32,683 nucleotides of DNA from Parcubacteria group bacterium (lineage in GTDB: Bacteria > Patescibacteriota > Minisyncoccia > Phycocordibacterales > JACNGX01). The notes below the pieces were generated by a model that saw only the letters and a list, made by a program, of their open reading frames with translations, searched no databases and was not told the origin of the DNA. This document shows positions 1 through 10,631 of the stretch, in pieces. Where the stretch lies: NCBI GenBank assembly GCA_014383885.1, contig JACNGX010000031.1, positions 1 to 32,683 of the forward strand, in the 5' to 3' direction. A program made the translations under genes and the position numbers. Position 1 is the first letter of the stretch, and every line of letters begins with the position of its first letter.

Positions 1-17
1 GCCGACAAGTTCTATTC

Positions 18-94
18 TGGTGGGTGCACCAGGACTTGAACCTGGAACCGCCAAGGTATAAGCTTGGTGCTCTAACCACTTGAGCTATGCACCC
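18..94 (-). tRNA. tRNA-Ile (anticodon UAU), CCA encoded
   Basis: Reverse complement folds as GGGTGCA-TA-GCTC AAGTGGTTA GAGC-A-CCAAG CT TAT AC CTTGG-CGGTT-CCAGG TTCAAGT CCTGG-TGCACCC-A-CCA. Confidence 0.93.
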
Positions 95-120
95 ACATAT
101 GTTTTCATCCTCTCTTGAAA

Positions 121-159
121 TTAAAAGCTCTGTGCTCTAACCGATTGAGCTATATGCCC
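121..159 (-). pseudogene. 5' half (positions 1-38) of a tRNA-Lys(UUU); 3' half not in window
   Basis: GGGCATA-TA-GCTC AATCGGTTA GAGC-A-CAGAG-CT TTT AA, then unrelated sequence instead of the expected CTCTG and T-arm. Confidence 0.75.
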
Positions 160-201
160 ATAAGGGGTATTCAGTATCGTACTATAAAACATCCTTTTTT
201 T

Positions 202-2376
202 CTACTCCAAATGCGGGGCGTCCATGGTGTCTACCGCTTTCTTGATTTCAGGGTGATTGGTGAGATGAGGGTCTTTCTCAAGAAGCAGAGTGGCTTCTTT
301 GCGCGCTGCTTCCACAAGCGGGAGGTTTTTTATGGCTTCCATGCCGATATCGGAAATGCCCCATTGTTTGTCACCGGAGAGCTCGCCCGCGCCGCGGAGA
401 GAAAGGTCCATTTCCGCGAGTGCAAATCCGTCGCGCGCTGAAACGAGTGCGTTGAGTCGATCAAGAGATTGAGATGCATTGGTGTCGGTAAAAAGATAAC
501 AATACGCTTGGTGAGAGCTTCTTTGCACGCGACCGCGAAGCTGGTGAAGCTGGGCTAAGCCAAAGCGCTCCGCGCCCTCAATCACGATGAGCGTGGCATT
601 TGGGACATTCACACCCACTTCCACCACCGATGTCGCCACCAAGATATCTATTTCACCTGATGAGAAGCGTGCCATCACGGAGTCTTTTTCTTTCGGTTTC
701 ATTTTACCATGGAGGATATCAATGGTGTGGTCAGGGAAGATGTTGTGGGAAAGACGCGCGGCCTCGGCTTTCACTGATTTTGTATTAAGTGCCAAGCGTT
801 TGTCTGGATCAGGTTCATCAATCCGCGGACAAATCACATATGCTTGTCTGCCGGCGGCGAGCTCTGTTTTTATATGATCATATACCTTCTCGCGCATGTC
901 GGGTGTAATGATTGAGGTGTGTACACTCTTGCGTCCGGCGGGAAGCTCATCTAAAAGAGTGAGGTCTAAATCACCGTAGATAGTGAGGGCGAGTGTACGA
1001 GGAATGGGAGTTGCCGTCATGGAAAGAAGATGTGGTGCACGATTGTCGCCGTCGCGATGGACAAGTTTCTCACGTTGAGCGGTGCCAAAGCGATGTTGTT
1101 CATCAATAATAGCGTATCCGAAATGCTTGAATGACACACTTTTTTGAATCAGCGCGTGGGTGCCGAAGAGAATGGCGATTTCGCCATTTGCCACCCATTT
1201 CAAAAGCTGCGCACGAGAAATATTAGTTGCTTCCTCTGGATTGCTCTTGGAAGGAAAAACCTTGCAACCACTGCCGGTAATGAGGCCGATACGAATGGGA
1301 AGGTGTTTGAAATATGTTTGAAATGAGGTGAAGTGTTGCGACGCTAAAATCTCAGTCGGTGCCATGTAGGCGACCTGGAACGTTCCGAAATCTTGCCCCT
1401 CGGGGCTGGTGATGACAACGGCGTAGGCTGTGGCTGCCGCGACAACTGTTTTCCCTGAACCGACATCACCTTCAAGGAGCCGGGTCATTGGCTCGTCTTT
1501 TCCCATGTCTTCTATGATTGCCACGATGGCGTGTTCTTGCGCGGTGGTGAGAGGGAAGGGGAATGTGTCGGTAAATGCCACGATAGTGTTTTCATCTGGC
1601 GCGATGCTATATGCACCGAGCGAGTGATACATGGCGCGCGCTTGCGCGCGCGCCACCTGAATCATAAAAATTTCCTCAAACGCAAAACGCTTGCGCGCCG
1701 CGCGCGCATCGGCTTCTTTCTCCGGTGTGTGAATCCACACCAAGGCGGTTGCAAGAGAGGGAAGATTGTAGCGTTTAAGTACGTCGGTAGGAATGGGATC
1801 GGCAAGAAGCTCGTGAGCGCCAAGTGAAAAAAGTTTTTTTACCGCATGCATAATGAAGCGCGACGTAATGCCTTTGGTCTCTGGATACACTGGTGCAGCA
1901 AATGCCTGTATGTCCTCACCTTCGGAAAAAAGCGAATCACCCACATCAATTGGCAGCGCTTTCGTTTTCTCAAATTCGGGATTTCCGAGATAGAGTACGC
2001 CACTCTTCTTTTCCTGCACTTTGCCGGCAAGCTTCACCGACGTGCCGACGGTAAGCACGCTTGCTGCAAACGCTTGATGAAACCATGTGGCGGTGATTTT
2101 TCCACTGCCGTCGTCCACGACGATTTCCCCGACAGGGACATTTGTCTTGAATGTCTTTTTTGTTTTTGCCGAAACGACAGTGCCGTAAATAATTACTTCA
2201 TCACCCTTCTGTAAGTCCACGATACGCTTCATATTTGCGATATGATGATAGCGGGCAGGGAAGTGGTATAAGAGATCAGCGACCGTATCAATACCAAGTC
2301 GCACGAGTGCTGTTTTGTGCGACCCTTGCAGACGAACATGCGCGCCGAGAGAGTTCGAAGGAGAAATATCTGACAT
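202..2376 (-). CDS. recG: ATP-dependent DNA helicase RecG
   Basis: Motifs LLEGDVGSGKT, MAPTEILA, IIDEQHRFG, MTATPIPRTL, AERFGLAQLHQLRGRV; N-terminal wedge/OB region; start placed at ATG 2376 (ORF open to 2403). Confidence 0.97.
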   Translation of the reverse strand: MSDISPSNSLGAHVRLQGSHKTALVRLGIDTVADLLYHFPARYHHIANMKRIVDLQKGDEVIIYGTVVSAKTKKTFKTNVPVGEIVVDDGSGKITATWFHQAFAASVLTVGTSVKLAGKVQEKKSGVLYLGNPEFEKTKALPIDVGDSLFSEGEDIQAFAAPVYPETKGITSRFIMHAVKKLFSLGAHELLADPIPTDVLKRYNLPSLATALVWIHTPEKEADARAARKRFAFEEIFMIQVARAQARAMYHSLGAYSIAPDENTIVAFTDTFPFPLTTAQEHAIVAIIEDMGKDEPMTRLLEGDVGSGKTVVAAATAYAVVITSPEGQDFGTFQVAYMAPTEILASQHFTSFQTYFKHLPIRIGLITGSGCKVFPSKSNPEEATNISRAQLLKWVANGEIAILFGTHALIQKSVSFKHFGYAIIDEQHRFGTAQREKLVHRDGDNRAPHLLSMTATPIPRTLALTIYGDLDLTLLDELPAGRKSVHTSIITPDMREKVYDHIKTELAAGRQAYVICPRIDEPDPDKRLALNTKSVKAEAARLSHNIFPDHTIDILHGKMKPKEKDSVMARFSSGEIDILVATSVVEVGVNVPNATLIVIEGAERFGLAQLHQLRGRVQRSSHQAYCYLFTDTNASQSLDRLNALVSARDGFALAEMDLSLRGAGELSGDKQWGISDIGMEAIKNLPLVEAARKEATLLLEKDPHLTNHPEIKKAVDTMDAPHLE

Positions 2377-2491
2377 GAGCATATTGTAGCACGAAATCCG
2401 CACCTTCTTTTCTTGCGCGACACTTCAATATATGATACTTTTTTCTGGTTGTTGTACTTTATATATTTTTGAACCTCTGATTTTTTATGAA

Positions 2492-3118: not shown

Positions 3119-3341
3119 CCCGTACAAAAATCAGCATCCTTTGGGATGCGATTTTTTGTTGGGCGGAGAGGAGGAAGCCGACTGCTCGGCTTCCGTGAGG
3201 GATTCGAAAAGGTTCTCCCATATTTTTGAGGAGCTTTGCTCCGAAAAAATGGGAAACCTGCACTGCTCCCGTAGGGAGAGAATCCCTCCGCACAAATAAT
3301 GAGCCGGACGGGAAACCGTCCGGCGATTATATTTGTGCAGG
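3116..3341 (+). repeat. structured direct repeat, copy 1 (226 bp)
   Basis: Near-identical to 10195-10418; built of nested hairpins. Confidence 0.93.
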
Positions 3342-10196: not shown

Positions 10197-10418
10197 GCCC
10201 GTACAAAAATCAGCATCTTTTGAGATGCGATTTTTGTTGAGCGGAGAGGAGGAAGCCGACTGCTCGGCTTCCGTGAGGGATTCGAAAAGGTTCTCCCATA
10301 TTTTTGAGGAGCTTTGCTCCGAAAAAATGGGAAACCTGCACTGCTCCCGTAGGGAGAGAATCCCTCCGCACAAATAATGAGCCGGGCGCATGTCGCCCGG
10401 CGATTATATTTGTGCAGG
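10195..10418 (+). repeat. structured direct repeat, copy 2 (224 bp)
   Basis: Matches 3116-3341 with a few mostly hairpin-preserving changes. Confidence 0.93.
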
Positions 10419-10436
10419 AGAGTGAGGGATTCGAAC
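10417..10436 (-). repeat. inverted copy of the tRNA-Ser 3' end (20 bp)
   Basis: ggagagtgagggattcgaac is the reverse complement of 3098-3117. Confidence 0.9.
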
Positions 10437-10631
10437 GGCGGAGCAGCGGGTCCCCGCTTGCGGGGCTGCGAGCCGCGTCCAGGAGTACTTAGCGGATTGC
10501 GAGCTTTAGCGAAGCAATACGCTTAGTAACTCCGGGACGAATCCCTCCGCAAAACAATGAGCCGGGCGCATGTCGCTTTTTGACTCTTGTTGCGCTATGG
10601 AAATTTTTTCAGTAATCTGTATCATATTCGT

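Follow-up and report, generated by a model that had tools for sequence, protein, structure and literature searches.

A tRNA-Ile(UAU) gene nested in a hairpin between tRNA-Ile relics beside recG in a Parcubacteria group bacterium

The tRNA-Ile(UAU) locus and the identity of the broken gene

In the genome of a Parcubacteria group bacterium (G000; 648 kb in 61 contigs, 96.5% complete), a complete tRNA-Ile(UAU) gene lies next to recG, shortly behind the front half of a broken tRNA gene. The stretch of DNA analysed here (the window) comprises the first 32,683 bases of contig C11; it begins at the contig end, and C11 stops 17 nt past the 3' end of the tRNA-Ile(UAU). The original prediction for this DNA had seen a tRNA 5' half on the minus strand with a whole tRNA-Ile 26 nt on, and both were recovered: a clean half at 159..121, a spacer at 120..95 and the tRNA at 94..18. 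Two 3' halves, decayed and not matching the 5' half, are on a second contig, C53. The features of the two contigs, each set in the order in which it is read, are as follows.

Window 202..2403, minus strand: recG, an open reading frame (ORF) of 733 amino acids; conserved upstream neighbour and synteny anchor
Window 160..201, minus strand: leader from the recG stop to the 5' relic, 42 nt; common to the same-genus genome G002
Window 121..159, minus strand: 5' relic, read as positions 1-38 of the resident tRNA-Ile(UAU); 36/39 identical to the G002 gene
Window 95..120, minus strand: left hairpin arm XL(a), 26 nt; begins ATTTCAAGAGAGG and reaches base -1 of the live tRNA
Window 20..94, minus strand: live, complete tRNA-Ile(UAU), the putative cassette cargo at the hairpin tip (ARAGORN; Rfam RF00005)
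Window 1..19, minus strand: left end of a further, polymorphic insert after the ...CAC of the tRNA; its right end is C53:1-55
C53:56-85, tRNA orientation: right arm pairing with the 26-nt spacer, by complementarity
C53, about 93-132, tRNA orientation: 3' relic 1, with anticodon-stem strand CTCTG and a foreign-type acceptor
C53:133-167, tRNA orientation: second hairpin arm, abutting relic 1
C53, about 180-213, tRNA orientation: 3' relic 2, with a 3' flank orthologous to that of the outer 3' relic in the same-genus genome G001

The 5' relic (159..121) is 39 nt long and retains the acceptor 5' strand, the D-arm, the anticodon-stem strand CAGAG and the loop CTTTTAA. In G002, an uninterrupted tRNA-Ile(UAU) stands behind recG and the shared leader. 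The relic is identical to the 5' half of this syntenic gene at 36/39 positions, to the tRNA-Ile(UAU) of G001 at 33/39 and to the adjoining live tRNA-Ile at 30/39, compared with 27/39 for the intact tRNA-Lys(UUU) that the genome itself possesses (C49:5440-5513). Since the relic is so much nearer to the syntenic tRNA-Ile(UAU) than to its own tRNA-Lys(UUU), the earlier label of tRNA-Lys(UUU) had to be given up: judged by these alignments, the half is the dead front part of the resident tRNA-Ile(UAU), and its UUU anticodon is a UAU with position 35 changed. Comparable relics in other genomes carry the anticodons UCU (G281) and UCC (G360), and the junction CTTTTA/ATTTCAA is identical in G000 and G051.

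The search that had been proposed for a tRNA-Lys 3' half with a TATGCCC acceptor on the minus strand was unproductive, a regular-expression search of the genome returning no credible match. The intact tRNA-Lys(UUU) elsewhere, which the original prediction had suggested looking for, is present; together with a lack of 3' halves nearby, it was to have reduced the 5' half to a simple decayed fragment. Such halves do lie nearby, as decayed tRNA-Ile relics. The 5' half is indeed a decayed fragment, but one that forms part of a recurrent and structured nesting.

The connection between C11 and C53 was established from contigs of sequencing runs. In an 825-nt contig of run X9 (contig 14), window 20-428 and a 30-mer of relic 2 are separated by 158 nt, exactly the spacing expected, and we therefore place C53:56 directly against the ...CCCAC of the tRNA; run X9 is labelled metatranscriptomic and was flagged as probably DNA. 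A unitig of run X3 (record 3) likewise passes from the tRNA end into C53:56-82, with a depth of 40.4 at this direct junction, compared with depths of 13.1 (X3) and 11.8 (X5) for the path through window 19..1. Over window 20-600, the contigs from the runs of three studies show no differences. No other contig end overlapping the start of C11 was found, a scan of metagenome contigs with the tRNA/insert junction gave no match, and a scan with C53:56-88 returned its own contig only.

Window 1-19 and C53:1-55 thus represent opposite ends of one additional insert, which has CAC at either boundary and is present in only part of the population; in the commoner form, the tRNA ends in ...CCCAC and runs directly into C53:56, without CCA. 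This bears on the encoded CCA, which had been taken as a hint of foreign origin. As assembled, the tRNA-Ile is the only tRNA of the window with CCA after it, in agreement with that observation; the hint itself fails because the 'CA' is supplied by the first letters of the polymorphic insert. The un-nested tRNA-Ile of G002 is also followed by CCA. At its right end (C53:20-47), the insert contains a near-consensus promoter-like sequence directed towards the relics (TTGAAA-16-TATAAT with an upstream TG, 11/12). At its start, contig C15 has a comparable promoter-like site (C15:16-55; 87.5% over 40 nt), which precedes a 40-nt perfect palindrome.

The live tRNA-Ile(UAU), called by ARAGORN at 94..18, matches the Rfam tRNA model RF00005 with 69.9 bits at 21-94, and a tRNA-Ile(UAU) was found in the loci of all 13 relatives scanned. 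The neighbouring recG is 79% identical at the DNA level to that of G002 and 66% identical to those of G051, G281 and G198, in which it adjoins tRNA-Ile(UAU) too; RecG Pfam domains are adjacent to seven nested loci. The leader between recG and the 5' relic is presumably the resident promoter region, now driving the whole nest, and a simple scan of window 1-400 returned no sigma-70 consensus promoter. The relative orientation of recG and tRNA-Ile(UAU) varies: it is tandem in G000, G002 and G198, divergent in G001 and convergent in G051 and G281, which suggests inversions around the palindromic nest.

Hairpin architecture and recurrence of the nests

The nests have a common layout: a 5' relic, a left arm, a whole tRNA-Ile(UAU), a right arm, a short AT-rich hairpin ending in ATATAY and a 3' relic. 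As read from the sequences, the left arm at 95..120 is complementary to C53:56-85, and the arm helix extends up to the acceptor stem, so that the live tRNA sits at the hairpin tip. The consensus fold of seven aligned cassettes consists of an outer 7-bp stem, a conserved internal motif, an inner stem and the tRNA cloverleaf; within the internal motif, an invariant GA stands opposite an invariant GA, followed by two covarying Watson-Crick pairs and then by a second block, of purine-A/G-M pairs.

Pairing in the arms is maintained across these seven cassettes. Of the cells formed by the 15 arm pairs, 90.5% are paired, and 12 of the 15 pairs have changed on both sides. None of 500 shuffles attained any of the five measures used, and sliding the partner by 1-3 columns lowered the pairing to 29-49%. 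The left flank of the cassettes is always ...TTATA or a mutated form of it, and the right side ends in ATATAY; TATA or ATA is found on both sides in the tRNA-Ile nests. The nests span 130-190 nt and hold no ORF. The hairpin, of about 60 nt, is also found without a tRNA: G001 has one such copy, and G047 has two, identical and in tandem.

Among the 19 relatives' loci from the first similarity search, five (G023, G001, G051, G032 and G047) have two-sided relics, and two more loci have 3'-only relics. Relics on the 3' side alone are found about 17 nt behind the tRNA in G015 and G047. The same layout was also seen in G281, G360 and G198. Overall, 8 of 33 distinct relatives' tRNA-Ile(UAU) loci are two-sided and two more are one-sided, a count biased by the fact that the loci were partly fetched with a query containing relic and arm sequence. 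The 5' break lies after position 37 in all nests. The architecture is contiguous in few-contig assemblies of relatives (e.g. G001, three contigs), and the outer halves are visibly decayed in G001, G023, G032 and G051. The 5' relics of two loci from different families, L006 (G051) and L003 (G001), share an insertion that begins with CCTGCC and follows GGTTA, at one and the same point of the D-loop. The insertion is a short palindrome in G051 and might represent a further small element marking dead copies of tRNA genes.

Nesting is not confined to tRNA-Ile(UAU). At C25:2415-2770, beside the 16S rRNA gene, a tRNA-Ile(GAU) locus has its whole gene enclosed by complementary arms, together with two 5' relics and one 3' relic. 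A full nest surrounds tRNA-Ala(UGC) at C26:3925-4225; its outer inverted repeats are perfect over 9 bp, and a target duplication is lacking. The arm sequences of both differ from those of the tRNA-Ile(UAU) cassettes, each tRNA type having its own arms. In total, 11 of the 38 tRNA genes of G000 have fragment copies in their vicinity. In G110, tRNA-Gln(CUG) is accompanied by two tandem 5' relics, each followed by a hairpin with a right end like the arms of the tRNA-Ile(UAU) cassette. A right-arm pattern applied to 201 genomes of the order matched about as frequently as its reversed-pattern control and missed the genome's own copy by one base; this search was discarded, although the tRNA-Gln nest of G110 happened to be among its matches.

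Origin of the nests

Several comparisons bear on movement between lineages. The arm at C53:133-167 is identical at 31/32 positions to the right arm of G051 and at 27/32 to that of G281, genomes of other families whose recG is only 66% identical to that of the window. An exact-pattern scan for the (b)-type right arm over bacteria and archaea, with one genome per species and the genome's own copy left out, returned G051 and G281 only. Relic 1 has a CCGCCCT-type acceptor and a T-arm as in the tRNA-Ile genes of other families (identity 49/57 to G036 and 64/76 to G051), and the tRNA-Ile genes in all three genomes of the genus are of the GGGYRYA type. The arm pair of the window itself compares with that of G198 at 17/19 (left) and 18/22 positions. 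Arm family and cargo type are incongruent: (b) arms surround CCGCCCT-type and GGGCGTG-type tRNAs, and (a) arms surround GGGTGCA-type and GTGCGCG-type tRNAs. Cargo equals relic in G001 and G047 but differs from it in G023 and G198, so that cassettes seem both to re-nest within a lineage and to be transferred from one lineage to another.

We consider it likely that the resident tRNA-Ile(UAU) was split by a protein-less hairpin cassette carrying a replacement tRNA-Ile(UAU), an insertion that took place at the level of DNA. The small cassette would have entered the anticodon loop after position 37, as a long imperfect hairpin with arms at 120..95 and C53:56-85 and the replacement tRNA (94..20) at its tip. 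Translation would be left unharmed, since the cassette brings a complete copy of the tRNA that it destroys. The outer halves would decay afterwards, here with a drift of the anticodon from UAU to UUU. An element integrated at the anticodon loop was one of the two possibilities first raised; of this, we retain an insertion that supplied a tRNA-Ile but left the broken gene unrepaired, and what has changed is that the broken gene is a tRNA-Ile(UAU) and that no integrase accompanies it.

The splitting would have happened more than once at this locus. Two different 3' relics are present on C53; relic 1, still attached to a right arm of its own, derives from an earlier cassette tRNA of foreign type, of which it is the 3' part. 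A history in four steps may be proposed. A (b)-type cassette with a foreign tRNA would have split the resident gene; the present (a)-type cassette would then have split that foreign tRNA; recombination between two similar 5' halves could have removed one of them along with the (b) left arm; and part of the population would have gained the further insert after the tRNA.

The results show directly what the relic is, that the tRNA joins C53 and that the nested architecture recurs with covarying arms; they show neither intron or splicing signatures nor, in the nests, a nuclease or integrase gene. We infer that the cassettes move and pass between lineages, and that an enzyme supplied in trans, which probably acts on the folded hairpin, inserts them site-specifically. 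To judge by the sequences at the junctions, by the mismatches retained in the hairpin and by the absence of any target duplication of fixed length, recognition of a folded single strand, or repair triggered by a nuclease, appears to fit better than cut-and-paste by a DDE transposase. A broader proposal is more tentative and, in our estimate, somewhat less likely to hold than to fail: the nests could represent a hitherto undescribed class of non-autonomous mobile DNA in ultra-small Paceibacterota or the candidate phyla radiation, in which hairpins with the tandem GA motif and a whole tRNA gene at the tip insert site-specifically into the anticodon loop of the same gene in other genomes, persist by replacing the essential gene that they destroy, build nests like Russian dolls and are mobilised in trans as single-stranded DNA by a host or phage enzyme.

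The search for such an enzyme covered both the surroundings of the nests and the genome. Among the neighbours of ten nested loci were RecG, FtsH and other housekeeping genes, and the sole match near the nests was a weak DUF559-like ORF outside that of G047. The genome has a single, Xer-like tyrosine recombinase gene (PF00589), on C60, and three small GIY-YIG ORFs, two of them inside the 23S rRNA gene and the third between housekeeping genes with no tRNA nearby. It also has a gene resembling those of REP (repetitive extragenic palindromic)-associated tyrosine transposases (RAYTs), of the Y1 type, at C49:670-1389 (239 amino acids; 29.9 bits to PF01797, and 46.5 bits to NF047646, below its cut-off of 80). 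The region around it (C49:638-1477) holds three copies of a perfect 23-nt palindrome, AGATTAAGGTC-N-GACCTTAATCT, of which the genome has nine perfect copies (three each on C46 and C49, one on C53 and two on C61), and gene and palindromes form a small REP/RAYT system. Of 401 genomes of the order, 228 contain the RAYT family, frequently as multiple copies.

A number of observations weigh against the proposed split by a cassette. Besides the bias in the count of nested loci, no pair of empty and filled alleles of one species was seen, and the polymorphism that was observed concerns the other insert, not the cassette. No homing nuclease, integrase or transposase was found among the 92 ORFs of at least 55 amino acids within 800 nt of the ten nested loci. 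None of the nine perfect RAYT palindromes is in the nest, and the palindrome differs from the cassette arms; the nested genomes G023 and G051 lack the RAYT family, leaving no clean link between it and nesting. Strong pairing between leader and trailer is also seen at relic-less loci (e.g. L080, L081 and L070), and the un-nested genes of G036 and G219 have native leaders and trailers that look like the arms. The arms may thus be partly native flanks of tRNA genes, and the cassette simply a tRNA gene with its own flanks. Finally, ARAGORN calls a cloverleaf, a tRNA(UUU), when the 5' relic and relic 2 are joined by program in certain ways, so that a spliced product is conceivable.

Among the alternatives, we regard as rather unlikely, while still worth considering as a sub-mechanism of the preferred explanation, that the cassette spread by homing: it would have travelled with a gene, since lost, for a small site-specific nuclease of the GIY-YIG or HNH type that cut cassette-free tRNA-Ile genes in the anticodon loop, and repair would have copied in the cassette together with an exon-like flank. 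The junction shared by G000 and G051 resembles co-conversion of a flank, and the counts of 5' and 3' relics differ, which is what repair tracts would produce. The genome does contain three small GIY-YIG ORFs, but at the positions described above, inside the 23S rRNA gene or between housekeeping genes, and a nuclease ORF is lacking within 800 nt in 10/10 of the nested relatives' loci. The polymorphic insert beside the tRNA could hide such a gene; the replacement tRNA, however, has the same anticodon loop and would itself be a target.

Highly unlikely, in our view, is a classical integrase scar, in which a phage or island with a tyrosine integrase recombined at the anticodon loop and was later reduced by deletion to pieces of tRNA. 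The anticodon loop, flanked by its stem, is reportedly a known crossover zone of integrases. Integrated elements leave partial tRNA genes (PMC9897764), and the 3'-only relics of G015 and G047, some 17 nt behind the tRNA, would fit an attR-like scar; in some cassettes, the stretch before the 3' relic also resembles a decayed 5' strand of an anticodon stem (e.g. in G032 and G281). Integrative elements, however, restore the gene with a 3' piece and leave a 3' fragment, whereas here a 5' half was left and a whole tRNA lies between complementary arms. In addition, the nests of 130-190 nt contain no ORF, and the sole tyrosine recombinase of the genome is on another contig.

An equally improbable scenario is local rearrangement, by which hairpin-prone flanks cause mistakes in replication or repair and the gene is copied into itself, with neither a mobile element nor transfer between lineages. 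It would account for outer halves identical to the inner tRNA (38/38 in G001; 37/37 and 41/41 in G047), for arms that look like native leaders and trailers and for each tRNA type having its own arm sequences. It does not explain arms identical at 31/32 positions in genomes whose recG is at 66%, a foreign-type relic inside the nest of this genus, the different acceptor types of relic and cargo in G023 and G198 or one breakpoint common to independent cassettes.

The other possibility originally raised, a tRNA nested in a tRNA intron, would make the locus a split or intron-containing tRNA-Lys(UUU), with the outer halves spliced as RNA and the tRNA-Ile inside the intron. We consider this very improbable. 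In its favour, the outer anticodon-stem halves are complementary in the cassette alignment, the ARAGORN calls mentioned above join the 5' relic and relic 2 into a tRNA(UUU), and the invariant GA/GA motif would also suit a recognition site for an RNA-binding protein. By hand, however, the join with relic 2 has two mismatches and two wobbles in the acceptor stem and only 3/5 pairs in the anticodon stem, and no programmatic join with relic 1 was called a tRNA. ARAGORN with introns allowed, one of the checks proposed at the outset, gave no intron-containing tRNA at the locus. An Rfam scan of the window at the gathering cut-off returned only tRNAs, with no group I or group II intron or other ribozyme in the nest, and E-value scans of C11:1-1700, C53:1-1680 and five nested relatives' loci returned tRNA matches only; as a positive control, the same tool detected a group I intron (RF00028) in the 23S rRNA gene of G000. 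The tRNA splicing endonuclease EndA (PF01974) and the ligase RtcB (PF01139), for which the control searches were positive in archaea, had no match in the 96.5%-complete genome. The half is, moreover, orthologous to tRNA-Ile, an intact and unrelated tRNA-Lys(UUU) exists, and the outer halves have decayed in G001, G023, G032 and G051.

An assembly or binning artefact at the contig end has next to no chance of being the explanation: the window does start at a contig end and its first 19 bases are a minority variant, but runs of three studies reproduce window 20-600 without differences, one contig bridges to C53, and the same architecture is contiguous in relatives such as G001 (three contigs).

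The interrupted 23S rRNA gene was noted in its own right. The gene, at C39:4100-8400, is heavily interrupted and includes two small GIY-YIG ORFs (124 and 94 amino acids), a LAGLIDADG ORF located in a weak match to the group I intron model (RF00028, 28.8 bits) and, within a stretch inside the rRNA match, a tRNA-Ala(GGC) called by both ARAGORN and Rfam. An ARAGORN call of a 'tRNA-Arg with a 193-nt intron' on C30 was rejected as a false positive; it falls inside a groES-like ORF.

Comparison with known systems and other tRNA-associated repeats

The split-and-replace nests were compared with several kinds of known elements. Phages, genomic islands and integrative and conjugative elements that target tRNA genes share with the cassette a break in the anticodon loop, incoming DNA that brings the missing sequence and tRNA fragments left behind (PMC9897764). 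Unlike them, the cassette is embedded in nests of only 130-190 nt, encodes no protein, brings a whole tRNA, leaves the 5' half as well and has complementary arms. No tyrosine or serine recombinase between repeats of tRNA sequence, as in attachment (att) sites, was found among the 92 ORFs around the ten nests.

In phage T4, SegB is a free-standing homing endonuclease whose protein-coding gene lies in a tRNA gene cluster and which cuts at a T-loop motif (PMC2330249). SegB cassettes and the nests are alike as selfish DNA linked to tRNA genes, with co-inheritance of flanking tRNA sequence and without an intron. The nests differ in that ten of them were without a nuclease gene and that the break lies in the anticodon loop; no GIY-YIG, HNH or LAGLIDADG ORF was found within the cassette.

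A further comparison is with the REPIN and REP sequences, short non-coding hairpins mobilised by RAYT transposases (PMC3116915, PMC3479197). Like them and like palindromes derived from IS200/IS605 elements, the cassettes are non-coding hairpins of imperfect palindromes in which structure is kept over sequence, and trans mobilisation as folded single strands has been proposed. REPINs differ in that they are not known to carry a cargo or to target tRNA anticodon loops, and the RAYT palindrome found here is unrelated to the arms. For the IS200/IS605 comparison, we considered the left flank ...TTATA, the right ATATAY and the invariant GA/GA mismatch; no cognate Y1 transposase linked to the cassettes was found. 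Of the features of DDE-type miniature inverted-repeat transposable elements, inverted arms are present, and TATA or ATA stands on both sides at tRNA-Ile with no duplication at tRNA-Ala.

The disrupted tRNA genes of archaea, which may be split, permuted or multiply intron-containing (PMC4390854, PMC4033280), resemble the nests in having halves broken at or near the anticodon loop and complementary sequences by the break. Their pieces are joined as RNA by an endonuclease and a ligase, whereas here neither enzyme was found, the halves have decayed and a complete gene lies between them. We found no published description of bacterial tRNA genes nested in their own relics, in a search that did not cover subscription journals, and the nests represent a recurrent and, it appears, unpublished kind of small cassette.

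If this reading is true, essential single-copy tRNA genes of tiny genomes are repeatedly overwritten by selfish cassettes without genes, a new route into an essential RNA gene that involves neither a self-splicing intron nor a restored att site. Practical consequences arise as well. Halves of tRNA genes with odd anticodons, such as the false tRNA-Lys here, mislead annotation and estimates of the completeness of the tRNA set, and the nests break assemblies, C11 ending in one. The conserved GA/GA hairpin offers a concrete substrate for finding the enzyme responsible.

Other repeats associated with tRNA genes were noted in the same genome. At C51:2950-3430, units of about 176 nt are repeated in tandem behind a tRNA-Pro(CGG), with similar pieces at C15:100-300 and C18:400-600. 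Each unit contains a hairpin, an antisense copy of the T-arm, a conserved block GGCGGAG...GAGCCGCGTCC, a promoter-like TATAAT and, at its end, the last 18 nt of the tRNA; this looks like a second kind of tRNA-associated element, one that breaks in the T-loop. In the window, an inverted, 20-nt perfect copy of the 3' end of tRNA-Ser(GCT) lies at 10417-10480 on the plus strand, 7 kb from the gene, and is followed by the same GGCGGAG...GAGCCGCGTCC block as on C51 and C15. A second antisense T-arm copy is found at about 3160-3200 of the window, directly after tRNA-Ser(GCT).

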